Sequence record: OM386654.1
Reading direction: 5' to 3' (one strand)
DNA: 64,000 nt
Origin: Escherichia phage vB_EcoM_ESCO9
Below are positions 16,712 through 44,345 of this stretch, in pieces (position 1 is the first letter of the stretch; each line of letters starts with the position of its first letter). The notes beneath the pieces are model-generated. The model searched no databases. It had not been told where the DNA came from and worked only from the letters and a program-made list of their open reading frames with translations. The position numbers and the translations under genes were made by a program.

Positions 16712-17263
16712 TCAGGAAATATCAGATTGTGCTTTTAGATAAACAGCAAGGTCTGTATGCCATTTTCCTAAAAGATTTTGTCCTTTCCAACAGTCCTTAT
16801 TTTCCACGTCACGATCCCACATTCCCATTTTGATACCATAAATAGAATCATAAGGGCTTGCCTCTACGAACTCCTTATCTGCGTAAGCGATAAGTTTATT
16901 TTTGAGATCTTCATTTTGTGTGTATTTAAGATACAAACCACGCTTGACAATCTTCTCCCGTAAAGAAGTCCAAGTAGCTTCATCGTAATCTTTAACTAAT
17001 CTACCTAGTCGCTTATAATATGCTTGTTCTTTTTCTCCTGTATATCTTAGATCTCCGGTTAAAATAGAAGATGCAATACTGTAATCATAAAACAAACATG
17101 CTTTTCTCCACATCATATATTGTTCCACACAAGTAAATTCAACAGAACTTGTAATAGAATTATTATACTTGGGTGCTAAAGGTTCAATAAAAGATGATAG
17201 ATACCAGTTGCTAAATTCATCTTTTGCTGAAAAGAAGAACACATACTTATCAGTAATCCGCAT
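16712..17263 (-). CDS. NADAR-domain protein (YbiA-like)
   Basis: FFFSAKDEFSNWYLSSF ... EQYMMWRKACLF ... EASPYDSIYGIKMG ... KGQNLLGKWHTDL resemble E. coli YbiA motifs. Confidence 0.75.
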   Translation of the reverse strand: MRITDKYVFFFSAKDEFSNWYLSSFIEPLAPKYNNSITSSVEFTCVEQYMMWRKACLFYDYSIASSILTGDLRYTGEKEQAYYKRLGRLVKDYDEATWTSLREKIVKRGLYLKYTQNEDLKNKLIAYADKEFVEASPYDSIYGIKMGMWDRDVENKDCWKGQNLLGKWHTDLAVYLKAQSDIS

Positions 17264-26597: not shown

Positions 26598-27074
26598 ATG
26601 TCTAAACGTTTTGGTCGTAATCAAAAAAGAAAGTTAAGTGCTCAACTAGCAGCTTTGCAAAAAGAGGTTAACACTTTACAAAAAAGTGTTTGTGAACTTA
26701 AGGAACAAAACCAACTTGAAAAAGAGTGTATCCAGCTTACACAGGAAGTTATTGGTGAGTATTTTCCTTCACTAGTTCCTAAGAAGGTGGCTCTTAGGGA
26801 AAATCTACCTTTTACCTTGTCCTTAATGCAAGCAAATGATAGATTCCAAACTGAAACTGATGATTTGATGTTTGCAATGCATCAATTACATGGTTTAGAA
26901 TATACAGCACAAGTGGATAAACTTCGTAACATGTTATATGTGCGGGTAGAAACACCTAAAGGTGAGACAGTAGCTTTTAATTATAATTTCCAACAGCTAC
27001 CTGATCATATTATTGAACAAATTTTAAAACGAGATTTTGTTCCTATGCTTGTTAAACAAATTAAGAGAGGTTGA
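26598..27074 (+). CDS. hypothetical protein (coiled-coil N-terminus)
   Basis: 158 aa. Confidence 0.6.
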   Translation: MSKRFGRNQKRKLSAQLAALQKEVNTLQKSVCELKEQNQLEKECIQLTQEVIGEYFPSLVPKKVALRENLPFTLSLMQANDRFQTETDDLMFAMHQLHGLEYTAQVDKLRNMLYVRVETPKGETVAFNYNFQQLPDHIIEQILKRDFVPMLVKQIKRG

Positions 27075-27075
27075 A

Positions 27076-28812
27076 ATGGCTAAGAAAGAGTTGAGCTTCA
27101 CTCCGACAGAAGAGCAAACAGCTATTAAGGAGGCTTTTCCAGATCATCGCTTTTTAACTATCCAAGCTAAATCTGGATCAGGTAAAACGTCAACACTTTA
27201 TTTGCTGGCTAACAGTACAGAAGATCGCATTCTTTACTTAGCTTTCAATAAAAGCATGGCAGAAGAAGCACGGCGTAAGATGCCACCAAATGTAGAATGC
27301 CGTACATTGCATTCCATTTGCTATCAATTCCTGGATCATCGCTTACGTGCAAAACTGTCACGACCAGAAGGACAATATGTTAACGTTGCAGGTACAGGTA
27401 GCGAGATAGCAAAGAAATTTAAGATTAATAATCTTATTGATAAACGAGGGAAAACACTTTTAACTCGTGCTATGATTGGTTTAATGATCAAGCAAACAGT
27501 AGGTAAGTTTGAATTTTCGGATGATCCTTTTATCAGCCGTAAACATTTTCCTAGTGTACATCTTGCAGATATTAAAAGAAAAGGTATTAACGAACACAAA
27601 CTAATTACAGAAGTAGTTAAGTATGCAAAACAATTGTGGCGAGAGCGCATTGATCCTAATACAGATACTTTGATGACGCATGACACCTATGTAAAATTGT
27701 TTGAATTATCAGGTGCTGATCTTGGTTATGACATTATTTTTGGGGATGAATTCCAGGATGTTAACCCTGCATTCTTGTCTATTCTGCGAAATGCTAAATC
27801 TGCAAAACAAGTAGTAGTGGTCGGGGACGAATATCAGAGCATCTACCAGTTCCGTGGAAGCCAAAATATGATGAAGGAAACCTCTACATATGGGGCAGAG
27901 CTTCCATTAACTGCTTGCTTCCGTTTTGGCCCCAAAGTGGCAAACATTGCCAATATGATTTTAAGCGATAAAGAACCTTTGCGTCATCCTTTGGTTGGTA
28001 AAGGCTTTGATACTGTAGTAGGTAGCTACAAATCAGATGTTGTAGACTATACAAAACCTTACACTATCATCTTTCGCAAGAATTTAACCTTGCTTATGGA
28101 GGCAATGGATCGTATTGCAGATGGGGAAGAAATTATTATTAACGTAGATACCAGGGATTTTATCTCTATGGTAGATAGTGTTAATGCTCTTCGGAGAGGA
28201 GATATTGAGAAAGTAAAACATGAAACTGTATTACCTTACGCAGACTGGAATGAATTTGTTGAGTGTGCAGAGGCTGATCCAGATGCTAAACGCTTGTTAA
28301 ACATCGTAGTTTCTGGTAAGGCGAACACTATAGCACATACACTTAGAACGCATAGAAATTCTCCTACAGCAAAAGTCACACTGACTACAGCACACAAGTC
28401 TAAAGGTTTGGAGTGGGATCAGGTTATTGTTGCTAATGATTTTCCTTCCAACTATGATAAAAAGACTGGTGAATGGGTAGGACTGGAAGAGGCAGAGCGA
28501 AACCTACTGTATGTAGCGCATACCCGTTGTGTTAAATGCTTACAATGGAACACAACCGTACAGGAGATTATAGATATCAACCGTGTTGCAACAGAGAAAG
28601 TACCAACAAGCACCACTTTACCGATCAATGGTATTAAACTTGGTGTATTTGGCGCTGGCACATCTCGAAAAACTGTAGAAAAATTTGTTGCAGATTCTTT
28701 TGATGGTAACTATAATCATGCACAAGCATATGAGAGTTGGCTAGAGGAAGGTGAAGGTGATTTCTTAGGTGAAATAAATCTTTTACCAGACATAAATAAA
28801 CTGGTAAACTAA
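27076..28812 (+). CDS. SF1 DNA helicase, UvrD/PcrA-like
   Basis: Walker A SGSGKT; IIFGDEFQD; VVVVGDEYQSIYQFRG; TAHKSKGLEWDQVIV. Confidence 0.8.
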   Translation: MAKKELSFTPTEEQTAIKEAFPDHRFLTIQAKSGSGKTSTLYLLANSTEDRILYLAFNKSMAEEARRKMPPNVECRTLHSICYQFLDHRLRAKLSRPEGQYVNVAGTGSEIAKKFKINNLIDKRGKTLLTRAMIGLMIKQTVGKFEFSDDPFISRKHFPSVHLADIKRKGINEHKLITEVVKYAKQLWRERIDPNTDTLMTHDTYVKLFELSGADLGYDIIFGDEFQDVNPAFLSILRNAKSAKQVVVVGDEYQSIYQFRGSQNMMKETSTYGAELPLTACFRFGPKVANIANMILSDKEPLRHPLVGKGFDTVVGSYKSDVVDYTKPYTIIFRKNLTLLMEAMDRIADGEEIIINVDTRDFISMVDSVNALRRGDIEKVKHETVLPYADWNEFVECAEADPDAKRLLNIVVSGKANTIAHTLRTHRNSPTAKVTLTTAHKSKGLEWDQVIVANDFPSNYDKKTGEWVGLEEAERNLLYVAHTRCVKCLQWNTTVQEIIDINRVATEKVPTSTTLPINGIKLGVFGAGTSRKTVEKFVADSFDGNYNHAQAYESWLEEGEGDFLGEINLLPDINKLVN

Positions 28813-30107: not shown

Positions 30108-31058
30108 ATGATTGCATTTTACGCTAATAAACTGGAAGTTAAAAAAGCAGCAGAAGAGATGGGTATCCTGCATATTCTTAATGAAGCAATTCACAAAAGT
30201 TTTGGTTACACATCTGAAGCAGAAATCAATGATCTGATTCATAGTGTTAATGACTTGTTCTTCTATCCTAACTTCCTACAGCAATTAGATGGTTGTGGAT
30301 TTGAATATATGGAACTTCACCCTGAATACACATTTATGGAAGTAACACCTGAAGGTTTTCTGGAGATTATTCGTACTGAATATCTTGCCAACGAGGATAA
30401 AGAAATGGATATGGTTGCAAAAGTACAACTGACTGTGCATAATACGTGTTTCCTGGATACTAGTGCAACGGAAGAAGATATTAGTTATCTGCTTTCCGTT
30501 TGTAATCCGCATTGTCCACAACCACATTGGAAAGATGCAGACCATTATCTAACATATTCAACTGAAGAAAACATTACTTTCTTCGATGAAAACAGTGGTA
30601 TTAATGGTGCACATAAGAATTCTCCATATAGGAAAGATCGGTTTGTAGTTGATGTAAAAACATTTACTAAACTGTTTGAGGAGTATTATTCAAAAAATGA
30701 AAGTAAGACTGAATCTTCACCAAAACCACGTTTTCGCCGACCGCGTAAACCTGTGCCTACTCGTTCTGTAAGTTATGTTCGTATCATTTACACTACGCAG
30801 CAGGTATATACTCTTAAGAACGTAAGCACTCTTACTGTACAAGAAGATGTAATTAATATTGTGCGTAATAATGTTATTACAGAGGGTATTGAGGAAAAGA
30901 TTATGTCTGTTATCGATCCTAAACTTGTTATGGCAATCATTATTAATGAACCAAAAGGTGTAACAACATTGTTCCGAAATATTCATGGCACTTGGGAAAC
31001 TCAAGTTGACGGTTTGACTTCTGACGGTTGTACACGTATTACCAAAAACCTTGACTAA
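30108..31058 (+). CDS. hypothetical protein
   Basis: 316 aa; AAGGAG RBS. Confidence 0.6.
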   Translation: MIAFYANKLEVKKAAEEMGILHILNEAIHKSFGYTSEAEINDLIHSVNDLFFYPNFLQQLDGCGFEYMELHPEYTFMEVTPEGFLEIIRTEYLANEDKEMDMVAKVQLTVHNTCFLDTSATEEDISYLLSVCNPHCPQPHWKDADHYLTYSTEENITFFDENSGINGAHKNSPYRKDRFVVDVKTFTKLFEEYYSKNESKTESSPKPRFRRPRKPVPTRSVSYVRIIYTTQQVYTLKNVSTLTVQEDVINIVRNNVITEGIEEKIMSVIDPKLVMAIIINEPKGVTTLFRNIHGTWETQVDGLTSDGCTRITKNLD

Positions 31059-34595: not shown

Positions 34596-34603
34596 GTGAT
34601 AAA

Positions 34604-34628
34604 AGGAGGCGAAAGCCTCCTTTATTTA
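34604..34628 (+). terminator. intrinsic terminator
   Basis: aggaggc-gaaa-gcctcct then ttatttat (GNRA loop). Confidence 0.6.
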
Positions 34629-34845: not shown

Positions 34846-34998
34846 ATGCTTACAGATGATGAATATAAAGCTATCCAAGAAAAACTAACGGAGCTTGAAA
34901 TTCTTGCTGTCAATATTAAAGATCAATCACATGCTGGAAAGTTACTACATCAAGAGATCAATAAAATTAAGCAGATGATATTCTTTTGGACGGAGGAT
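34846..34998 (+). CDS. small hypothetical protein (50 aa)
   Basis: ORF below track cutoff; GGGGGAAGAAA RBS. Confidence 0.3.
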
Positions 34999-35003
34999 TA
35001 AAA

Positions 35004-35660
35004 ATGACTGTTAAGCATATTTCTTTTGATGTATGGAATACTCTTATTACTGCTAATCCTTTGTATGCAGAAGAACGCAACAAGGTTATTGCCGAGTATG
35101 CCTCTTGTTCTGAGGCAGAAGCAGCTACTGTTTATAAAGAGGTAAAAACTCTCTTAGATTTAAAAGCAGAAAAAGGCATTTGTGGAACGTCTAAGGATGC
35201 TTGGGTAACACTTTCTACTCGTTTGAACATTGATCTTGACAAAGTGGATGGGTTAAAAAGAGATTGTTTGGCAATGTTTATAAAACATCCTCCAACATTG
35301 AATCCTGAACTTTGCAAGAAGTTGGAAGAGCTAAGTTCAACCTACTCTTTGAGTATTAAGAGCAATACTAATTTTGTACCAGGTAGTTTCTTAGCTGTAT
35401 ATTCTGGTTTAACAAAATTACCATTCGACTTTATGCATTTTTCTGACGAGTTTTGCTTGTGTAAACCAGATCCTAGGTTTTTTAAACTCTCTTTTGATGA
35501 AATGGTGACGTTTGATCTCGCACCAGAGGAGATTTTACACGTTGGAGATAGTTTGATTTATGATGGAAAAGCTGTTGACATAGGGATGAAGTTCTGTCAT
35601 ATTATTAATCCAGAAGACTTGTTGGCTAAACTTAAAAAAGAGGAACTTATTAATGCGTAA
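35004..35660 (+). CDS. HAD-superfamily hydrolase
   Basis: Motif I FDVWNTL, motif II SIKSNTN, motif III KPDPRFF, motif IV HVGDSLIYD. Confidence 0.75.
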   Translation: MTVKHISFDVWNTLITANPLYAEERNKVIAEYASCSEAEAATVYKEVKTLLDLKAEKGICGTSKDAWVTLSTRLNIDLDKVDGLKRDCLAMFIKHPPTLNPELCKKLEELSSTYSLSIKSNTNFVPGSFLAVYSGLTKLPFDFMHFSDEFCLCKPDPRFFKLSFDEMVTFDLAPEEILHVGDSLIYDGKAVDIGMKFCHIINPEDLLAKLKKEELINA

Positions 35661-36510
35661 TCAAATTCAACATTTTGCTAATACTTTTACTAACCTGAAG
35701 GAAGCAAAATTTAACATTGCAGATTATTCCAAACTAAAGTTTGGTAGTAACCAGGCAGCAAAAAGAATGGGGCGCATTCTGGCTGAAAGTTTCTTTTCTA
35801 AGTATGAAGAACGACTGGTAAATGAAAGTTTTGTTGTTATTCCATCTCCATATAACTATGTGAAAAATGCAGCTACAGTGTTATCTGAACATTTTGTAGA
35901 TCACCTCAACTACCTAATCTCTATCAAAGGTGGTAAACCAGTGGAGTGGGATATCGTTCATCGTAAAGTGAGCTATATCAATGATTATGGATTTCTTAGC
36001 AAAGAAGATCGTAAGGCTTTGATCGATGGTGACACTTTCTCTATCAATCGTGATTTCTGGGGTAATAAAACTCTGATTTTCATTGATGATGTTAATATTA
36101 CAGGAACGCACGAAGAAAAACTTATTGAAATTTTAGACAAAGAAGGTGTTGAAAACGATACGTTTTTCCTGTACTTTGCAAAGTATGAAGGTACAGAAGC
36201 CAACACCGAAGCTGCACTTAACTTCAACTATATCAATAACCTGGCAGCTTTTATTAAGATGATTAAGCAAGAAACTGATGCTAAATGTTTGGTTCGTCCT
36301 ATTAAGTATCTAATGAGTCAAAGCGAAGTTGATTTTAAAATTGCACTTTCACAGCTTCCTTTGTATTATGTAGAACAACTGTTCTTTGGTTGCCTTGCAG
36401 AAGGCTACAATAACATTGAAAAATATAAAGAGAACTTTGATTTTCTACGTCAATTTTTTGAAAGCAACATTATCAATAAATCTAATGTTAAAGGGGATTA
36501 TTATGTCTAA
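35653..36510 (+). CDS. phosphoribosyltransferase-like protein (type I PRTase motif)
   Basis: PRPP-binding-like TLIFIDDVNITGTHEE; overlaps HAD gene stop. Confidence 0.55.
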   Translation: MRNQIQHFANTFTNLKEAKFNIADYSKLKFGSNQAAKRMGRILAESFFSKYEERLVNESFVVIPSPYNYVKNAATVLSEHFVDHLNYLISIKGGKPVEWDIVHRKVSYINDYGFLSKEDRKALIDGDTFSINRDFWGNKTLIFIDDVNITGTHEEKLIEILDKEGVENDTFFLYFAKYEGTEANTEAALNFNYINNLAAFIKMIKQETDAKCLVRPIKYLMSQSEVDFKIALSQLPLYYVEQLFFGCLAEGYNNIEKYKENFDFLRQFFESNIINKSNVKGDYYV

Positions 36511-37219
36511 TAAAGTAATGACTTTCGGAGATCCTATCACCAATATTACAGAAAAAGATTTTGGGCGTGTAGCAACAGATAAAGATGGTGTCTTAAGAAT
36601 TCGTGTACAAGGTATTACAGCACAGGATGAATATGCTGTGTATGTTTCAGGTCTTAACTATATTGATGATCGCATTACACAAAACTTTGCACTGATCGGT
36701 GGTGTAGAGAAAATGTACTGGGAAGATGAAATTGTAACAAGTTATCCAGCAGGTATCATTGAGGTATACGGTGATCTTTTAGCAGCAGCCGAGAGAGGCG
36801 ATATAGACGCTATAGCACACTGCTGTAACTGTTTTTGCACTATGGGTAGTGGTATTGCACCAAAAATTAAAAGTAAGTGGCCTGGGGCGTTTAAAGCAGA
36901 CTGTGCCACTAAACGTGGTGATTATAAAAAATTAGGTACGTTTACCAAGTATACAGAAAACAATTTGACAATTTATAATTTATATGGACAATATGGTTAT
37001 AGTCGTCGTGAGGAAGGCAAGCGTGACCTGAATTATGAAGCTATCTATAATGCGTTAGATAGTATGGGAGACGATGTTGTATCTTCAGGCGGTAAAATTG
37101 TAGGTTTACCAATGCTTGGTTGTGGTTTGGCTGGAGGTTCTTGGAATATTGTAAAACTTATGATCGAAGAAACTCTAGTAAACAAAGGTTTAAATGTAAT
37201 TGTTTACAAACTGAAATAA
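36503..37219 (+). CDS. macro-domain protein, TARG1/OARD1-like
   Basis: IDAIAHCCNCFCTMGSGIAPKIK and LPMLGCGLAGGSWNIVKLMIEE...VIVYKL resemble human TARG1 LAHCISEDCRMGAGIA / MPRIGCGLDRLQW; about 95 aa N-terminal extension. Confidence 0.75.
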   Translation: MSNKVMTFGDPITNITEKDFGRVATDKDGVLRIRVQGITAQDEYAVYVSGLNYIDDRITQNFALIGGVEKMYWEDEIVTSYPAGIIEVYGDLLAAAERGDIDAIAHCCNCFCTMGSGIAPKIKSKWPGAFKADCATKRGDYKKLGTFTKYTENNLTIYNLYGQYGYSRREEGKRDLNYEAIYNALDSMGDDVVSSGGKIVGLPMLGCGLAGGSWNIVKLMIEETLVNKGLNVIVYKLK

Positions 37220-37698: not shown

Positions 37699-37757
37699 TT
37701 GACTTTCTTTAAAAACAGTTTATAGTATAAGATATAGAGCGGAGGATTGTCCTCCGC
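37699..37757 (+). promoter_or_regulatory. promoter plus leader stem-loop upstream of TerC gene
   Basis: TTGACT, 17-18 nt, TAGTAT, then hairpin gcggagga-ttgt-cctccgc, then AAGAGGAG RBS. Confidence 0.5.
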
Positions 37758-37775: not shown

Positions 37776-38753
37776 ATGCAACTGGGTTTCCCAATTATTG
37801 ATGTGGTTGTTTTAGTGGGTATTTTAGTGTTGTCGATTTGTATTGATTTCTTTGGCCACAGAGAAAACAAAGAAATTTCATTTAAATCTGCAATTGGTTG
37901 GTCAATTTTTTGGATTGGGGTATCATTAGCCTACTATGGTTTTGTATACTTCCAGCACGGTGCTGATTTTGCGAGCTTGTTCTTGAGTGGGTATGTGTTG
38001 GAGAAATCTCTTTCTGTAGATAACTTAGTAGTATTTGTGGCAGTATTCGCAAGTTTTGGTATTAAAAGCACACACTTGCAACACAAGATTCTACTTTGGG
38101 GTATTGCAGGTGCGATTGTCTTCCGAGGTGTGTTTGTAGCAGTAGGCACTTACTTGTTGAGTTTGGGTTGGTATGTTAATATCTTCTTCGGTGCTGTCAT
38201 CCTTTTCTGTGCGGCTAAAATGGTATTCGCTGGAGATAATGATGCAGAAGTTGATTACTCTAAACACTGGGCTACTCGCATTGTTCGTAAGCTGTTCCCT
38301 GTATCTGATCAGATGGATGGTGAGAAGTTCTTCACAATCAAAAATGGTGTTCGTGTAGCAACTCCGGCTCTGGTTTGTGTGTTTGTAATGGAAATGGTTG
38401 ACGTAATCTTTGCAGTAGACTCTGTTCCAGCAGTAATTGCAGTGACACAAGAACCTCTGCTGGTGTTCTCTTCGATGCTCTGTGCAATCTTAGGTTTACG
38501 TGCTCTGTTCTTTGTTCTTAGTGTTGCACTGAAGTATTTGGTTCATCTGGAGAAAGCAGTTATCGTAGTCCTGGTATTTGTGGGTGTAAAACTGATGTAT
38601 CATCCGTTTGCAGAAACTCTGCACGCAAAAGTGAGTTTCCTGCCAGCACACATTGATCCGACGATCAGTATGTATATTGTGTTAGGTACTCTTGGGTTGG
38701 GTGTTATTGCAAGTTTAATCTTCCCTGAAAAAGAAGACCAGACTGTTGCTTAA
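37776..38753 (+). CDS. TerC-family integral membrane protein
   Basis: Multi-pass membrane protein with YVLEKSLSVDNLVVF signature. Confidence 0.8.
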   Translation: MQLGFPIIDVVVLVGILVLSICIDFFGHRENKEISFKSAIGWSIFWIGVSLAYYGFVYFQHGADFASLFLSGYVLEKSLSVDNLVVFVAVFASFGIKSTHLQHKILLWGIAGAIVFRGVFVAVGTYLLSLGWYVNIFFGAVILFCAAKMVFAGDNDAEVDYSKHWATRIVRKLFPVSDQMDGEKFFTIKNGVRVATPALVCVFVMEMVDVIFAVDSVPAVIAVTQEPLLVFSSMLCAILGLRALFFVLSVALKYLVHLEKAVIVVLVFVGVKLMYHPFAETLHAKVSFLPAHIDPTISMYIVLGTLGLGVIASLIFPEKEDQTVA

Positions 38754-38759
38754 TTCATT

Positions 38760-38782
38760 AAGCCCCTTCGGGGGCTTTGTTG
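38760..38782 (+). terminator. intrinsic terminator
   Basis: agcccc-ttcg-ggggct then ttgtt (UUCG loop). Confidence 0.6.
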
Positions 38783-38792
38783 AGGTGATCTG

Positions 38793-38999
38793 ATGGTAGT
38801 TTTACGTGTTCTTTGGATTCTGTTTGAAAATATTTGTTTTGCTTTAGGGTTATTTTGTTTGATTTTTATCTTGACAACATACATTGATAACCATACAATT
38901 ACTATCAACAGGAACGGAGAACAGATGTATTGTTTCTCTAGGGATTTTAAAAATTGTGTTGAGACTTTAAATGAGAGGGTTACAAATGAAAAACATTAA
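38793..38999 (+). CDS. small membrane protein
   Basis: 68 aa hydrophobic N-terminus. Confidence 0.4.
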   Translation: MVVLRVLWILFENICFALGLFCLIFILTTYIDNHTITINRNGEQMYCFSRDFKNCVETLNERVTNEKH

Positions 39000-39576
39000 A
39001 TCTTTTATTGTTGCAGTTGTTTTAGGTAGTGCATTGCTGGTAGGTTGTGATGATTCTGAAAATGTACAAAATCAACGTTACCAACAAACACCAAATCAGA
39101 TGGTAGATGAACAATATGTAAATCAGCCTGCACCTCAAGTTGTTCAAGCAGCACCTGCACAACCTTCAACAGTTGTTGTGCAAGGAGGCGGCAGTGGTTC
39201 TTCTGGTGTAGGTGAGTTTGCTACAGGTATGCTTCTTGGTCATATGTTGAGTGGTAATAGTGGCGGTGGTGGTTATAGAGATGGTGGTAGCAGCACAACA
39301 ATTATTAATAACAACGCTGCTCCTACAACTAACAGTAAAGCATATACAACACAAAAGCATAGTTTTTATGATAAACAAGGAAATACATATACAACCACTA
39401 AACAAAACACAATTAAGCAGCAAAGTGTACAAACGTATTCACGCCCATCAACAACAAAAGTGAATAGTGATTACTCTGCTCGTAAGTCTTACTCAAGCCC
39501 TATTAGCTCTTATAGTAAGTCTTCGAAAAGTTATTCTTCGTCGAAACGTAGTTTTAGTAGCTCACGTCGTCGTTAA
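38986..39576 (+). CDS. lipoprotein with Gly-rich and Ser/Tyr/Lys-rich low-complexity regions
   Basis: Signal peptide with lipobox LLVGC; GGGSGSSGVG...GNSGGGG; C-terminal SYSKSSKSYSSSKRSFSSSRRR. Confidence 0.6.
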   Translation: MKNIKSFIVAVVLGSALLVGCDDSENVQNQRYQQTPNQMVDEQYVNQPAPQVVQAAPAQPSTVVVQGGGSGSSGVGEFATGMLLGHMLSGNSGGGGYRDGGSSTTIINNNAAPTTNSKAYTTQKHSFYDKQGNTYTTTKQNTIKQQSVQTYSRPSTTKVNSDYSARKSYSSPISSYSKSSKSYSSSKRSFSSSRRR

Positions 39577-39611
39577 TAATTTAATACAGATTAAATAAGA
39601 AGGAGAAACAG

Positions 39612-40463
39612 ATGAAACTAGAAGTTGGTAAAGTATATCGCCTGGAAGGTTGGATCTTTAATCAAGAAATCCTTGAGAAGAATAAAGATGGTTTTGAGTT
39701 TGTTGGTACTACCAAGGAAAGTATGCACGATGACGAATACTGTAAATTCGTTGGTAAAAATACAGGTCAAGAACAATTTTGCTTTAAGAGCGCAATCGGG
39801 GACTATGCTTCTGTAATGCCAACACCAGAAAAGACTTCGAAGCAATATACTGTCTTTGGTGTAAAACTTGAAGAACTTGTAGAACACCCACGTTTTGAAG
39901 AGTTCAAGGTTGCTGCAATGCGCAAGCATTCTGAAATTAAAATACATAATTTGTTTGATTTAGAAGATCGGTTTGATATCTTTATGTATGATCGCAGGGA
40001 AAAGCATTTTGATGCAACGACTTCAAAATTTGCTGCAACAGAGGATATTAAAATCCTTGATGTTGATACCTTTCTTGAGAGTGTATCGTTTGTATTCATT
40101 CCTAAATACAAAAAACGTAGTGATCATAAACGTGTGAAAGGAACTCCTCGTAAGAAACGTACTGTAAACAAAGCAACTTTGCACTTCACTTCTGGTGATA
40201 AATATACTCTCAAAGGGTTTGAAAGTGTTTTATATGATGCTGGAACAGGTAATATCAAGTTTATCATTAAGGCAACCTACAAAGGTACGGTATTGCACGA
40301 AGAGGCTGTTACACTACCTGTATTCGATATCTCTCGTGTTGAGGTACGGGGTGTTAAAGAGTCCTTCGATCTGGATTTCTTAACTACTAATGCTACTGGT
40401 TATGTTAATCTGGAAGCAGATGGAGCATTTATTACTACAAATTATTTAGATATGTTTGTTTAA
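39612..40463 (+). CDS. hypothetical protein
   Basis: 283 aa; AAGGAG RBS. Confidence 0.6.
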   Translation: MKLEVGKVYRLEGWIFNQEILEKNKDGFEFVGTTKESMHDDEYCKFVGKNTGQEQFCFKSAIGDYASVMPTPEKTSKQYTVFGVKLEELVEHPRFEEFKVAAMRKHSEIKIHNLFDLEDRFDIFMYDRREKHFDATTSKFAATEDIKILDVDTFLESVSFVFIPKYKKRSDHKRVKGTPRKKRTVNKATLHFTSGDKYTLKGFESVLYDAGTGNIKFIIKATYKGTVLHEEAVTLPVFDISRVEVRGVKESFDLDFLTTNATGYVNLEADGAFITTNYLDMFV

Positions 40464-40531
40464 TACTTAATTTGTGTTATGATGGTGGTACAGAGGTATC
40501 ACCATCTACTAAAGAATATGGAGGAAATTGA

Positions 40532-41635
40532 ATGTCCAGTCCTTTTATCAGTGCCGTAAAAAGCAAACCGTCTGAAATGAGTGTATTCACGGCAACAACA
40601 GAAAAAAGTAAGTCTTTGTTTGCTCCAAGTGCTATGGATGCAAGCCCTGTATATGCCCCTGCTGTTGCACGACCTGTACAAATGCTGCCTCCAATGTCTC
40701 GTGAAGAGATTGAACAGGTTGGTGCTGATGCAGGACTTACTCTTCGTAACCTTAATGCTGAAGTGCTTAAACACCAGCGTTCATCTCAGGGAGATGAAAT
40801 GAGTGAACGTTTAACTGCACTTATTAAGCAAGCAAAGCAACTTGATCCTAACTCTATTAAACAATCTAAAGGCTTAGGTAAACTAGTTAAGAAAGTATTA
40901 GGTATGAAAGAAGATTTGTTTGGTGAATTTGACACCATCAATAATCGTATTGAAGGTTTGGTAAAGACACTACAAACAGACTTGAAAAAAGAAGAAGATT
41001 CTTTACGATATCTGCAACGTTTAGAAGAGGCTATTGCAAAATATGCTCTTAGCTTAAACAGGGATATAGAGCTTCTAACAGCTACTTATGAAAAAGAAGA
41101 AGTTCGCCTTAATACACTACCTGAAAATGAAGTAGAAGAGCGTCAACGTACTCGTGACACTATGGATCTGCTTGAAATTCGTATTGCAGATCTGAAAGCC
41201 TTACGTTTACTGTGCGTTCAGATGGGGCCACGTGTACAAAGTATGCAGAAAGTATCTGCAAGTTTGATGCGATCAGCCCGTAATATTGTGAATAATGTTA
41301 TTCCTGCTTACTCTGCAAACTTTTCTATGTATATTGAAAGTCTACGCCAGAAGAAAGCAGCCGATACGCAGAACAATGTACTGAATGAATTTAATGCTGC
41401 TATTGCAATGGGTAGTGATCTGGCTGCACAAAACCAGATTGAAGCTACACAACTTGCTAATCGTCAAGTATTGGATATTGAAACATTGCGTCGTGATCAA
41501 GAAAACTTAGTTAAAATGTTGGAAGAAACTAACCGAATCAACACTGAAGCCCGTGCTGCTCGTATTGATTACATTCAAGAAGTGCAATCTCTTGAAGATG
41601 GTATGATTCAAACTGTTAAACGTGGTCTACTTTAA
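40532..41635 (+). CDS. TelA-like (toxic anion resistance) protein candidate
   Basis: 367 aa, largely helical/coiled-coil; size and LDPNSIKQSKGLGKL region fit my recollection of TelA. Confidence 0.45.
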   Translation: MSSPFISAVKSKPSEMSVFTATTEKSKSLFAPSAMDASPVYAPAVARPVQMLPPMSREEIEQVGADAGLTLRNLNAEVLKHQRSSQGDEMSERLTALIKQAKQLDPNSIKQSKGLGKLVKKVLGMKEDLFGEFDTINNRIEGLVKTLQTDLKKEEDSLRYLQRLEEAIAKYALSLNRDIELLTATYEKEEVRLNTLPENEVEERQRTRDTMDLLEIRIADLKALRLLCVQMGPRVQSMQKVSASLMRSARNIVNNVIPAYSANFSMYIESLRQKKAADTQNNVLNEFNAAIAMGSDLAAQNQIEATQLANRQVLDIETLRRDQENLVKMLEETNRINTEARAARIDYIQEVQSLEDGMIQTVKRGLL

Positions 41636-41648
41636 GGAGAAATATATT

Positions 41649-41855
41649 ATGAATATTAAAATTTACAAACTGTCTGGTTCTATGATTGCTGTTCAGTATG
41701 ACAATGAAGATCGTTATGTTCTCCTCCAGGATGCTTGGTTAGATGATCCTAATGTATTCACTGTCCTGCGAGAACTACGTTCTGTCTATACCTATTCTTC
41801 TAAAGATGGTTTTGACAATTCAACGATGGAATTGGTAAAAGAGGAGAATGTGTAA
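41649..41855 (+). CDS. hypothetical protein
   Basis: Start moved to ATG 41649 with AAGGAG RBS. Confidence 0.5.
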   Translation: MNIKIYKLSGSMIAVQYDNEDRYVLLQDAWLDDPNVFTVLRELRSVYTYSSKDGFDNSTMELVKEENV

Positions 41856-42055
41856 TGAGTAAAGATATTCACTTAACTCGTGAAGAATTGCAAACCATTA
41901 TGGAAGATGCTTTCATTGATGGTTGGAAACAAGGTCAAGAATCAGATTGGTATGATGCCGAAGATTTTTTGTATTATCATATGACTGCACCTGTAGACGA
42001 GCAAACACACTCTGAAACAACTTTGGCTTTAATTGATCTTAAGGCTGGTGTATAA
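41855..42055 (+). CDS. hypothetical protein
   Basis: 66 aa; shares EL..I...AF..GWK.G motif with C-terminus of next ORF. Confidence 0.5.
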   Translation: MSKDIHLTREELQTIMEDAFIDGWKQGQESDWYDAEDFLYYHMTAPVDEQTHSETTLALIDLKAGV

Positions 42056-42618
42056 TGGGGTGTTTTAGTTTCTTGTGCAAAGAGTCTGGTAATGCTGCTC
42101 TTTCTACCTCTTTCGATGGCTCTCCTTGCTACCTATTTCTTTTGAAAGGTGGTAAGGTTGTCGAAGAGATGTATGGGAATTATGATAGCTATGGTAGTGT
42201 TTTCTCTAACGAAGAAGATAAACATGGCAATCGTAAAAGATTTAAGTGGTCTATGCCTTGGGAAGAAGTTTGTAATTTGATGTTCTCTTCCGATCTTGGA
42301 GATGGGATTGCTCTAGTATTAGAAGAGCACTTTACAGGCGAGATCCCAACAGAAAGATCTGAAGAAGACCCTAACCAGGGTTGGGGTGATGGGGAAGAAG
42401 ATCCAGATTGCTTCTTCAGCACTGAAAATAATAAATTTAAACGTGTTGACAATCCTTACCACAAAGTGCATAATACTTGCATTGAGACAGAAGAAGACTC
42501 AAAGCTAGAAATTGAAGATGATTTAGTTGTAACTATCTCTTTAAACGAGTTGCAAAAAATCACTAGAGAGGCTTTCTATTTAGGTTGGAAAGTAGGTAAA
42601 GGAGGAGATAGTGCTTAA
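42055..42618 (+). CDS. hypothetical acidic protein
   Basis: 187 aa. Confidence 0.55.
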   Translation: MGCFSFLCKESGNAALSTSFDGSPCYLFLLKGGKVVEEMYGNYDSYGSVFSNEEDKHGNRKRFKWSMPWEEVCNLMFSSDLGDGIALVLEEHFTGEIPTERSEEDPNQGWGDGEEDPDCFFSTENNKFKRVDNPYHKVHNTCIETEEDSKLEIEDDLVVTISLNELQKITREAFYLGWKVGKGGDSA

Positions 42619-42880
42619 ATTTAATATCAAAGACGACAAATCAGATGAACCTAAATGTTTTGGAGAACTTGACGTAGGTGATACATTTGTATATTATGTT
42701 GCCTATCAAGATTCTGGTTTAGATACATTCAGAAATTTAGTGTTTATTAAGGTTAATACAAACCAAGCAATGTGTCTGAACGGTTCGCAAAGAGGTCAAC
42801 TTAGCTGTATTTCGTATGATACAGAAATGGTAGAAGTGGATTTAGAAGTTACTAACATTACACTCAGAAAGGAGAAATAA
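42611..42880 (+). CDS. hypothetical protein
   Basis: 89 aa; GTG start after AAAGGAGGAG. Confidence 0.5.
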   Translation: MLKFNIKDDKSDEPKCFGELDVGDTFVYYVAYQDSGLDTFRNLVFIKVNTNQAMCLNGSQRGQLSCISYDTEMVEVDLEVTNITLRKEK

Positions 42881-42881
42881 T

Positions 42882-43676
42882 ATGTCCAATAAAATCAGTC
42901 TTAAAAAACGTCAAGAAACTCTTACCGTATCTCTGCGTAAGAAAAAGATTAACGATGTTGTTCTTCGTGTCGGTAGTGCCTTAGATATTTCGGGTAGTAT
43001 GTGTGAGCTGTATCGTGATGGCACTGTTAGTGATTTTGTAGGTAAACTGCTGCCGTTTGGTATGAAGTTTGATGATAATGCACAGATTGACATGTGGGCT
43101 TTCAATAGTTCTTCTTTTGAACTGCCTCCTGCAACGGCTGATGTATATGATGATTATGTCGGCTCTTGTATGTCTAATGTTTGCATCAATGGTGGTACAG
43201 CTTATGCCCCAGTAATGCAAGAGATCTATGATACATACTTCGGTAGTGTACCTATGAAAAATATTACACGCGAAGTCGTTGAGTATGAAGAAGTTCCGGC
43301 TAAGGGTTTCCTTGCTAAACTAACTGGTAAAAAAGAACGTGTAGAAGTTACACGTACTGTTGTAGAACAGGTTGTAGATACTGATGCACAAGTTGATCGT
43401 ACTCCTGCAATGATTTTCTTCCAAACTGACGGGGAGAACATGGATACTTCAGCAGTACGTAGTTTGCTGAACAAACACCGCAACACTCCTGTTTACTGGT
43501 TTATGGTTGGTGTAGGCAATGCAAACTTTAAATTCCTGAAAGACTTGGCAAAAGAATACGATAATGTTGATTTTATCGGTATTGCAGATTTGTCCTTGTC
43601 TGACGAAGAACTTTACGATAAACTGCTATCCGAAGAGTTTGGTGAGTGGGTTAAAAAATTTGGAGCAAAAGCGTAA
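42882..43676 (+). CDS. vWA-domain protein, TerY-like
   Basis: MIDAS-like motifs DISGSM, GGTAYAPV, FFQTDGENMD; N-terminus ISLKK...VSL resembles TerD N-termini. Confidence 0.65.
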   Translation: MSNKISLKKRQETLTVSLRKKKINDVVLRVGSALDISGSMCELYRDGTVSDFVGKLLPFGMKFDDNAQIDMWAFNSSSFELPPATADVYDDYVGSCMSNVCINGGTAYAPVMQEIYDTYFGSVPMKNITREVVEYEEVPAKGFLAKLTGKKERVEVTRTVVEQVVDTDAQVDRTPAMIFFQTDGENMDTSAVRSLLNKHRNTPVYWFMVGVGNANFKFLKDLAKEYDNVDFIGIADLSLSDEELYDKLLSEEFGEWVKKFGAKA

Positions 43677-43683
43677 AAAACGC

Positions 43684-43711
43684 TTGACTTTGTAGAAAAG
43701 ATTAGTAAAAT
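43684..43711 (+). promoter_or_regulatory. sigma70-type promoter upstream of TerD gene
   Basis: TTGACT, 16 nt, TAAAAT. Confidence 0.55.
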
Positions 43712-43748
43712 AGACAACGTAAATTAACAACAAAGGAGATAATAAATT

Positions 43749-44345
43749 ATGACTCAGAAAATTTCCCTGAAAAAAGGTTCTAGCGAAAAAGTTTCTCTGA
43801 AAAAGATTGCACCAGCACTGAAACGCATTCGTCTGGAATTCTCTTGGAAATCTAACGAAAAACTGGATCTGGATGTTAGTGCTCTGATTTGCCGACACAA
43901 TGCATCTGGTCTGCCGGAACTGTTGTCTCCTCGCCACCTGGTGTGCTACGCGCAGAAATTTGATCCTGAACGTTCTACTTTTGCAGGTGAAGATGTTCGT
44001 GATGGTGTAGGACAGATGGAGCAGATTGATGTTACACTGGATAATATCTCTGCTGAAGCACAGGAAATTGCATTCGTAATTACTATTGATGACGAAACGG
44101 GTAAGAAACGCCTTGGTCACGCTACCGAAGGTTTCCTTAAAATCTTCGATGATGAACGTAATGTTGAACTGCTGGATTTTGACTTCTTGGCTCCAGAACT
44201 TGCAGGTAATACCATTTGCCACGTTGCCTCCCTGGTGCGGGAAGATAGCGAATGGAAACTGAAAGCATATGGTGTAGGTAAAGCTGGACTTGACATTTAT
44301 GATGTAGTTAAAGCGTTTGGCGCTGGCGACGATTGGTTCGAGTAA
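43749..44345 (+). CDS. TerD-domain protein
   Basis: ISLKKG..VSLKK, DLDVSAL, IAFVITIDD, SEWKLKAYGVG align with E. coli TerD. Confidence 0.85.
   Translation: MTQKISLKKGSSEKVSLKKIAPALKRIRLEFSWKSNEKLDLDVSALICRHNASGLPELLSPRHLVCYAQKFDPERSTFAGEDVRDGVGQMEQIDVTLDNISAEAQEIAFVITIDDETGKKRLGHATEGFLKIFDDERNVELLDFDFLAPELAGNTICHVASLVREDSEWKLKAYGVGKAGLDIYDVVKAFGAGDDWFE

Follow-up and report, generated by a model that had tools for sequence, protein, structure and literature searches.

The window analysed here, a 64,000-nucleotide stretch of Escherichia phage vB_EcoM_ESCO9 (OM386654.1), comes from a Justusliebigvirus that is phi92-like (~98% identical). On its plus strand lies an open reading frame in which a small N-terminal domain is fused to a macrodomain. 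It is the orthologue of Phi92_gp185 and will be called gp185. Its immediate neighbours are a gene for a PRTase_3 protein and a 68-aa membrane ORF; TerC, TelA, vWA-TerF and TerD are located just downstream. Hairpins at 34602-34623 and 37739-37757 bracket the genes for the HAD-family hydrolase, PRTase_3 and gp185. The features needed in the following are:

34986..35660, plus strand: HAD-family hydrolase, the invariant partner of PRTase_3
35653..36510, plus strand: PRTase_3 (ComF-like phosphoribosyltransferase), 285-aa ORF; PF15610, E=1.5e-41
36491-36497, plus strand: Shine-Dalgarno-like AAGGGGA, 6 nt 5' of the gp185 ATG
36503-36510, plus strand: start/stop overlap ATGTCTAA, ATG 36503-36505 with the PRTase_3 TAA 36508-36510
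36503..37219, plus strand: fusion ORF of N-terminal domain and macrodomain (gp185), complete, 238 aa plus stop
36503..36751, plus strand: N-terminal small beta-rich domain, residues 1-83, delimited by AF2 secondary structure and alignments
36752..37216, plus strand: macrodomain, residues 84-238, assigned to the ALC1-like class, SCO6735/Bt_1257 subclass
36827..36829, plus strand: Asn109, codon AAC, counterpart of SCO6735 Asn27
36989..36991, plus strand: Gln163, codon CAA, at the site of TARG1 Lys84, DarG Lys80 and SCO6735 Gln85; invariant in the phage family
37118..37138, plus strand: phosphate-binding loop G206-C-G208-L-A210-G-G212, where G206 and G208 correspond to SCO6735 G126 and G128
16712..17263, minus strand: NADAR gene, orthologue of AdfN(Bas60)

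The first-pass annotation had placed a protein with a macrodomain at 36503-37219, and the reading frame as well as the Pfam, PHROG and TARG1 matches bear this out. PF01661 is matched by residues 106-217 with 31.3 bits (gathering cut-off 22, E=2.1e-7) and phrog_335 by gp185 with E=6.6e-65; human TARG1 aligns with E=3.3e-10 in HMMER and with 30% identity over 158 aa in BLASTP (E=4e-16). The gene is 98-99% identical at the nucleotide level in >50 Justusliebigvirus genomes. Existing annotations of Phi92_gp185 read "phosphatase" or "putative macrodomain protein", the former going back to what the A1pp motif was called.

The C-terminal part had further been ascribed to the TARG1/DarG class of macrodomains, and here sequence and predicted structure agree. 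The AF2 model has a pLDDT of 87.5, with both domains confidently modelled. Its best PDB match in Foldseek is TARG1 (4j5r, E=7e-12, target TM 0.86); the leading matches, TARG1, Bt_1257, TaqDarG and SCO6735, have target TM values of 0.78-0.86. Foldseek yielded 201 PDB matches at E<=1e-3 and, among the matches listed, 50 of 50 are macrodomains. The DarG models of NCBIfam and PADLOC also match the macrodomain part at about 1e-13. With the class definition taken from PMC9411070 and assignment by the closest relatives in sequence and structure, TARG1, DarG, SCO6735 and Bt_1257 are closer than the MacroD, PARG and Poa1p types, which identifies the C-terminal part of gp185 as an ALC1-like (TARG1/DarG-class) macrodomain. 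Within this class, TARG1 or DarG had been named as the nearest kin; by sequence, the SCO6735/Bt_1257 subclass is nearer. The best PDB sequence matches are SCO6735 (5e3b, 3e-15) and Bt_1257 (4e-15), followed by TARG1 (3e-10) and DarG (9e-4); identity is 33% to SCO6735 and 30% to Bt_1257 (E about 1e-20).

The first-pass annotation had tied catalysis to the Lys/Asp pair of TARG1 and DarG. Equivalents of these residues are absent. In both HMMER and MAFFT alignments Lys84 and Asp125 of TARG1 are replaced by Gln163 and Ala210, and Gln163 also occupies the position of the catalytic Lys80 of DarG. Yet the Lys/Asp criterion was mis-specified, because SCO6735, an active enzyme, carries this very Gln/Ala pair and depends on its Gln85: the Q85A mutant is inactive, while N27S and G128E strongly lower activity (PMC9411070). 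In gp185 the SCO6735 counterparts H106, N109, Q163, G165, G206 and G208 are kept. All residues that SCO6735 requires are retained and invariant across about 150 clusters, and the alignment shows G206-C-G208, which has the form of the GxG phosphate-binding loop, to be invariant. The counterpart of Asn109 in the AdfM of PhiKZ is the conserved catalytic-site Asn that was mutated in N23A. The mobile loop from Q163 to Y178 comprises 14 residues, as compared to 13 in SCO6735 and 8 each in TARG1 and T4 Tk.4; a loop that exceeds that of TARG1/DarG by about 5 residues marks the SCO6735/Bt_1257 subclass. To deduce inactivity from the missing Lys84/Asp125 is an idea that we reject, since SCO6735 has the same residues and the AdfM of T4 also has a Gln.

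Being a member of the family of T4 AdfM, gp185 most likely removes defensive ADP-ribose from phage DNA. Judged from its sequence and by analogy, it is fairly probable that gp185 serves counter-defence against DarT2 as an orphan ADP-ribosyl glycohydrolase of the DarG-like ("AdfM-type") kind. Host toxins of the DarT2 type would modify thymidines of single-stranded phage DNA with ADP-ribose and thereby block replication. The macrodomain (residues 84-238) would bind the ADP-ribose and cleave the N-glycosidic link, and thus restore the base. Its catalytic centre would be of the lysine-free SCO6735 type: Gln163, fixed by Asn109, would position the distal ribose, and the G206-x-G208 loop together with the long mobile loop (residues 164-177) would close the site. 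Undoing the host's ADP-ribosylation of phage DNA had been among the functions initially considered, and by homology to SCO6735 and T4 AdfM/Tk.4 it is the best-supported one; for the degradation of ADP-ribose-based signals, also considered, we found nothing in support.

SCO6735, the closest relative that has been characterised, cleaves dT-ADPr from DNA and rescues DarT toxicity, and it removes the dT-ADPr made by DarT faster than DarG or TARG1 (PMC9411070). Bt_1257 (PDB 2fg1) and SCO6735 share with gp185 the Gln in place of Lys, the Ala in place of Asp, the His, the Asn, the G-x-G and the long loop; they are, however, cellular single-domain proteins without the N-terminal domain. TARG1 (OARD1), the best structural match, also removes T-ADPr from DNA, but it is eukaryotic, works with the Lys84/Asp125 dyad and has the short loop.

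A precedent from phages is Tk.4/AdfM of T4, whose knockout sensitised T4 to DarTG2 (bioRxiv 10.1101/2025.11.20.689424). Like gp185, it is an orphan macrodomain of a lytic coliphage without a DarT partner, belongs to phrog_335, has Gln at the site of TARG1 Lys84 and lacks an equivalent of Asp125. In contrast to gp185, with its long loop and its N-terminal domain of 83 aa, T4 Tk.4 is a stand-alone protein of 155 aa in which the loop that follows the Gln is short; it is encoded in the tk/vs region instead of a HAD-PRTase_3/Ter region, and genetic evidence is available for T4 only. A literature search for published DarTG tests on the macrodomains of Justusliebigvirus/Bas60-62 retrieved none. Some observations count against the DarT2 assignment: the identity to T4 AdfM is just 30% (E=9e-18), T4 lacks the long loop, and the N-terminal domain may change the activity of gp185.

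PhiKZ AdfM (gp104) strips DarT2 marks in vitro; it has a catalytic Lys (FPTK motif) and is only 24% identical to gp185 (E=2e-3). The reaction proposed for gp185, removal of T-ADPr, is that of PhiKZ AdfM and of DarG. With the DarG of DarTG2 systems gp185 further shares the macrodomain class and the predicted fold (TaqDarG 5m3e, Foldseek E=4e-9). DarG, however, has a catalytic Lys, a C-terminal DarT-binding domain and an adjacent darT, none of which is seen in gp185: beside the gene no darT was found, and a PADLOC scan of the upstream genes came out empty. The NCBIfam DarG model NF048014 is matched with 48.9 bits against a cut-off of 250, at model positions 4-147 of 338. That gp185 is the DarG antitoxin of a toxin-antitoxin pair was therefore rejected.

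The NADAR protein encoded in the same genome is an orthologue of AdfN(Bas60), an anti-DarTG1 factor proven by experiment that neutralises DarT1 but not DarT2 (PMC11825919), and is likely a functional sibling of the gp185 macrodomain. Because the genome carries this orthologue, we read gp185 as the thymidine-specific partner, an orphan DarG-like eraser that would complement the NADAR protein, the eraser of guanosine-linked ADP-ribose from DarT1. T4 likewise pairs its AdfM with the NADAR protein AdfN.

Phi92-like phages infect a broad range of hosts and attract therapeutic interest. If the assignment is true, they are fully equipped against DNA ADP-ribosylation with a kit of two enzymes, in which the NADAR protein covers the guanosine marks of DarT1 and the macrodomain the thymidine marks of DarT2. 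The pairing as in T4 would then imply that different phage lineages assembled NADAR and macrodomain independently, and the lysine-free SCO6735 catalytic type would reach a second phage group beyond T4. The idea of a phage macrodomain as an eraser of DarT marks had been reported before, in 2025-2026, which makes the advance an incremental one.

The physiological substrate of gp185 could differ, because SCO6735-type enzymes also act on Glu/Asp-ADPr protein and U-ADPr RNA. Such marks, Glu/Asp-linked on proteins or uracil-linked on RNA, could be placed by host ADP-ribosyltransferases of defence systems or by competing phages, and gp185 would reverse them instead of those on DNA. Both SCO6735 and TARG1 hydrolyse the protein and RNA derivatives. 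Moreover, Lys34 and Lys89 position the DNA in SCO6735, where K34E nearly abolishes DNA activity (PMC9411070). In gp185 they are replaced by Ser116 and Ser167, with Arg168/Arg169 adjacent, and a preference for DNA is therefore not assured. Yet SCO6735 in competition strongly prefers dT-ADPr DNA over protein and, in one assay set, was inactive on 2'-OH RNA ADPr and 5'-phosphate ADPr. The AdfM proteins of T4 and PhiKZ counter DarT2, whose target is DNA, and in the literature consulted we came across no defence system of E. coli with U-ADPr RNA or Glu-ADPr as its product. We consider a protein or RNA substrate unlikely.

Equally improbable, in our view, is that the macrodomain has as its substrate a soluble derivative of ADP-ribose or some phosphoribosylated metabolite. 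It might act as an ADPR-1''-phosphate "phosphatase", as an O-acetyl-ADPR deacetylase or on the product of a neighbouring enzyme, and would be one step in a nucleotide or nucleoside-like metabolite pathway of HAD and PRTase_3 (plus MazG) tied to the Ter cluster. The idea is fed by the genome setting: gp185 runs in the same direction as HAD and PRTase_3, is closely packed with them and probably shares their transcript, and the Ter genes follow. According to papers that cite Anantharaman 2012, the biosynthetic genes linked to Ter are predicted to make a nucleoside-like metabolite. The order PRTase_3-(N-domain-MazG)-macrodomain is kept across diverged Stephanstirmvirinae-like phages, and TARG1 is also an OAADPr deacetylase according to its PDB names. 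Some members of the family may serve soluble ADPr or NAD metabolism, as is suggested by the genes around a jumbo-phage homologue (NAMPT, Nudix, SIR2 and PRPP synthase).

The survey of PRTase_3 loci, which was run with an alignment-based query since a single-sequence query reached close relatives only, points the other way. HAD stands directly upstream of PRTase_3 in all 19 loci, whereas the macrodomain is present in only 5 of them, all of one lineage, and in 0/14 outside the lineage of the window phage. Conversely, PRTase_3 is nearby in 5 of 80 macrodomain loci; the other 75 are devoid of PRTase_3, HAD and TerC. The T4 AdfM works without any PRTase_3, and the "phosphatase" label derives from a motif name. 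The link to PRTase_3 is thus lineage-specific synteny; the conserved pair is HAD-PRTase_3, with the macrodomain outside it, and PRTase_3 is probably not a functional partner of gp185. The coupling to the PRTase that had initially been put forward does not point to a shared function. The overlap of the gp185 ATG with the PRTase_3 stop is real, but it tells little about a specific functional link, because such overlaps are common genome-wide (about 17 of 45 gene junctions in an annotated relative), HAD and PRTase_3 included, which share 8 nt (35653 versus 35660).

Apart from its macrodomain, for which removal of ADP-ribose from DNA remains our preferred function, gp185 has a sole unusual feature, its N-terminal domain. 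The first-pass annotation was right in separating an unrecognised domain at this end, while its boundary at residue 95 has to be moved to 83/84 according to AF2 and the alignments. A Pfam search with this part matched no family. The domain is rare, restricted to phages and fast-evolving; it occurs in about 35 clusters, and D19, G21, R22, A24, F62, G67 and W73 are invariant in the family. Besides the macrodomain, its partners are a MazG-like pyrophosphatase and a third domain of unknown kind; fusions to MazG-like domains predominate. The architecture with the macrodomain is limited to a single genus and one relative from a metagenome; at 53% identity, P0002 is a diverged relative that has the fused form. 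In the loci L005, L012 and Tr1, the genes for N-domain-MazG proteins sit between PRTase_3 and stand-alone macrodomain genes. Since the N-terminal domain usually heads a MazG-like protein at this very place, the fusion looks like a loss of MazG: in the lineage of the window phage the MazG part would have been lost and the N-terminal domain fused in frame to the macrodomain. A tblastn search of the window found no MazG-like remnant.

Of course, the lost MazG part, the narrow occurrence of the architecture and the missing catalytic Lys and Asp of TARG1 could also mean that the fusion is a decaying, non-catalytic remnant, be it an ADP-ribose binder or an accidental deletion product whose N-terminal domain has no adaptive role; this is very improbable in view of the retained SCO6735-type residues, an ORF that is unbroken in 54 genomes with 96-100% amino acid identity, changes in the N-terminal domain within the genus that are mostly synonymous (though few were counted), the survival of the fused form in P0002 and the confident models of both domains.

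That the N-terminal domain "supplies targeting", as had been suggested, is speculation. The more specific version, a fast-evolving targeting or recognition module that is placed on interchangeable effectors and takes all of them to one shared site or binding partner, is in our opinion doubtful. This target might be ssDNA under replication, a toxin of the host (DarT, for example) or the machinery of Ter and HAD-PRTase_3. If the domain does target, gp185 would differ in mechanism or substrate from stand-alone AdfM or DarG. The domain is a candidate specificity module, and it shows on a small and manageable scale how domains are shuffled between neighbouring genes of anti-defence or nucleotide metabolism.

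The ORF at 36503-37219 (+), the 238-aa orthologue of Phi92_gp185 (here gp185), is real. Its ATG (36503) overlaps the TAA (36508-36510) of the upstream 285-aa ORF, as the first-pass annotation had noted (ATGTCTAA), and a Shine-Dalgarno-like AAGGGGA ends 6 nt 5' of it. Some records start the gene at the ATG at 36485 (244 aa), which lacks such a ribosome-binding site. The region is 97.7-98.8% identical in more than 50 Justusliebigvirus genomes (phi92-like, Stephanstirmvirinae), those of the BASEL phages PaulScherrer, EmilieFrey and JohannJBalmer included. The domain call is thus nothing new: Phi92_gp185 already carries the annotation 'putative phosphatase' or 'putative macrodomain protein'. Four or five 'Campylobacter phage' records (A150, A145, A110a, C3; host C. 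jejuni) are ~97% identical to E. coli Justusliebigvirus genomes and are probably mislabelled or contaminant. The UvrD/Rep helicase of JohannJBalmer (L001, 3140-5914) contains an intein; its orthologue in the window (27037-28812, 591 aa) is short enough to be free of it.

Pfam places the Macro domain at residues 106-217 (E=2.1e-7; 31.3 bits, cut-off 22). An extra N-terminal domain had been proposed, and it exists; its supposed length of 95 residues has to be reduced to ~83, the macrodomain extending from about residue 84. By sequence, the closest solved structures are S. coelicolor SCO6735 (5e3b, 3e-15) and Bacteroides Bt_1257 (4e-15), followed by TARG1 (3e-10) and then DarG (9e-4). BLASTP identities are 33% to SCO6735, 30% each to Bt_1257 and TARG1, and 24% to PhiKZ gp104. 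The AF2 model (pLDDT 87.5) is matched best by TARG1 (target TM 0.86), then by Bt_1257, TaqDarG and SCO6735, with the macrodomains of alphavirus nsP3 and Poa1p further down. The DarG HMMs of NCBIfam and PADLOC recognise the macro part at ~1e-13, the NCBIfam model with 48.9 bits, far under its equivalog cut-off of 250, and over positions 4-147 of 338 only. The original label 'TARG1/DarG-like' is therefore correct at class level, and the nearest subclass is SCO6735/Bt_1257.

The catalytic Lys/Asp pair, for which an alignment to TARG1 and DarG had been proposed, is absent: Gln163 occupies the position of TARG1 Lys84 and Ala210 that of Asp125, both invariant across an alignment of 13 family members. 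To deduce inactivity from this would be wrong, because SCO6735 lacks both equivalents and is active, and gp185 keeps the features of its subclass. On DNA, SCO6735 removes the thymidine-ADP-ribose made by DarT more quickly than DarG or TARG1 do, and it counteracts DarT toxicity in both E. coli and Streptomyces (PMC9411070). Its Gln85 is essential (Q85A is inactive) and is locked in position by Asn27; the subclass is further marked by Gly128 and by a mobile loop that exceeds that of TARG1 by five residues (PMC9411070). Like SCO6735, gp185 retains His106, Asn109, Gln163, Gly165, Gly206 and Gly208, and its loop comprises 14 residues, compared to 13 in SCO6735 and 8 in TARG1. The DNA-positioning Lys34 and Lys89 of SCO6735, however, are replaced by Ser116 and Ser167, with Arg168/Arg169 adjacent. 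We predict an active ADP-ribose-processing macrodomain with much more confidence than its substrate and role; a non-catalytic remnant, as the missing pair might suggest, is very improbable in view of the retained residues.

Phage macrodomains directed against DarT2, called AdfM, have been described. In T4 it is Tk.4: a DarTG2 host is the only one on which transposon insertions in it become depleted, and T4 lacking it is sensitised to this system (bioRxiv 10.1101/2025.11.20.689424). Tk.4 is 30% identical to gp185 (E=9e-18), shares phrog_335 with it and likewise has Gln at the critical position. PhiKZ gp104, also called AdfM, removes DarT2 marks in vitro, yet is a Lys-type, DarG-like macrodomain. 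The window further encodes a NADAR protein:

16712-17263 (-), NADAR protein, 183 aa (PF08719, E=3e-36)

Its gene, labelled 'GTP cyclohydrolase II', 'DNA methyltransferase' or 'hypothetical protein' in several GenBank records, is 97.5-98% identical in nucleotides to that of Bas60-62 ('YbiA-like N-glycosidase'). The product of the latter, AdfN(Bas60), is experimentally validated: it neutralises DarT1 and restores plaquing on DarTG1, and it does not act on the thymidine marks of DarT2 (PMC11825919). Because of this identity, the phage has a proven guanosine-ADPr eraser. For thymidine-ADPr, the gp185 macrodomain is the obvious candidate, which would mirror the T4 pair; our literature search found no direct test of the macrodomain against DarTG in Justusliebigvirus. 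In our view, gp185 is reasonably likely to be an orphan glycohydrolase, DarG-like and with the SCO6735 type of catalysis, that clears phage DNA of thymidine ADP-ribosylation of the DarT2 type; the NADAR protein would act beside it. Reversal of protein or RNA ADP-ribose is unlikely.

A role in soluble-metabolite chemistry, together with the neighbouring HAD and PRTase_3, has to be judged from the gene context. The co-oriented block comprises two small ORFs, HAD, PRTase_3, gp185, a 68-aa membrane ORF and an 82-aa ORF, with terminator-like hairpins at both ends (34602-34623 and 37739-37757). A phage-borne Ter cluster, 37776-44345 (+), adjoins the HAD-PRTase_3 pair:

34986-35660 (+), HAD, after the two small ORFs of the block
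35653-36510 (+), PRTase_3 ('PRTase ComF-like'), 285 aa (Pfam E=1.5e-41)
37776-38753 (+), TerC, downstream of the block
40532-41635 (+), TelA
42882-43676 (+), vWA-TerF-like
43749-44345 (+), TerD

HAD lies directly upstream of PRTase_3 at 19 of 19 PRTase_3 loci, about half of which have Ter genes nearby. A macrodomain is present at 5 of these 19, all from ~150-kb Stephanstirmvirinae-like phages, and the same five are the only ones among the best 80 viral loci with a macro relative that have PRTase_3, HAD or TerC within 5 kb. HAD-PRTase_3 is a conserved functional pair, the macrodomain an independent passenger in this lineage, and joint work on a soluble metabolite seems doubtful. The ATGTCTAA overlap, previously taken to imply translational coupling, reflects compact phage gene packing: HAD and PRTase_3 overlap by 8 nt, the identical length, and many more overlaps occur across the genome. 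Phage Ter clusters have been noted previously, and, according to a secondary citation, a nucleoside-like metabolite is the predicted product of Ter-linked biosynthetic genes. In other large phages (L091, L101, L105, L106), HAD-PRTase_3 is found near TelA, vWA or TerD genes.

On a 368-kb jumbo-phage contig (L007, 3997-16450), a macro homologue of 48% identity (P0047) stands in tandem with a second macrodomain, next to NAMPT, Nudix, SIR2, an NMNAT-like CTP_transf_like protein and PRPP synthase, a setting that points to a role of some members of the family in NAD+/ADP-ribose metabolism or in defence against NAD depletion.

With the AdfM-type system already known (2025-2026) and gp185 annotated as a macrodomain, the novelty is confined to the fused architecture and the way it probably arose, and the finding is therefore of modest interest. 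By tblastn, the N-domain occurs only in Justusliebigvirus and Citrobacter phage Tr1 (separate ORF, 39% identity). A profile search yielded ~35 clusters, and only 24 matches (clusters at 50% identity) turned up when 1.84 billion representatives were scanned in full with an HMM; the domain thus appears to be rare, and restricted to phages. Three different C-terminal partners are attached to it (window 36503-36751; P0121-P0154, P0276-P0292). Most carriers, ~185 aa long, continue after the module with a MazG-like all-alpha pyrophosphatase (phrog_1247, E=7e-23; JGI 'NTP pyrophosphatase'). At L005, L012 and in Tr1, such a gene lies between PRTase_3 and a stand-alone macro gene of ~153 aa; at L015 a stand-alone macro gene directly follows the PRTase. 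Fusion of the module to the macrodomain, after a conserved '[DS]YP' motif, is seen in the window and in a single diverged relative from metagenomic data (P0002, 53% identity; L004); neither fusion contains a MazG segment. The simplest reading of these sequences is that the fusion arose when the MazG part was lost in frame.

Mean pairwise identity is 41% in the N-module and 80% in the attached MazG part, the module being the less conserved in 99.3% of 276 pairs. It evolves much faster than its partner, about twice as fast, which fits a module involved in interaction or specificity as well as plain weak constraint. The third architecture joins the module via a basic linker to a C-terminal domain homologous to the window ORF 30108-31058 (+). 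This 316-aa ORF has neither a Pfam match nor an N-module; its C-terminal part shows homology to that of P0148 and relatives (tblastn E=3e-10), which have this third architecture and the C-terminal motif 'KPRFxKxRQKPPVR...KTDV'. In Tr1 (L003, 5983-6590), the N-module-MazG gene seems to be split into annotated ORFs of 142 and 60 aa, which may reflect a frameshift or a sequencing error in the record; the metagenomic cluster P0121 contains the same protein uninterrupted, with 202 aa.
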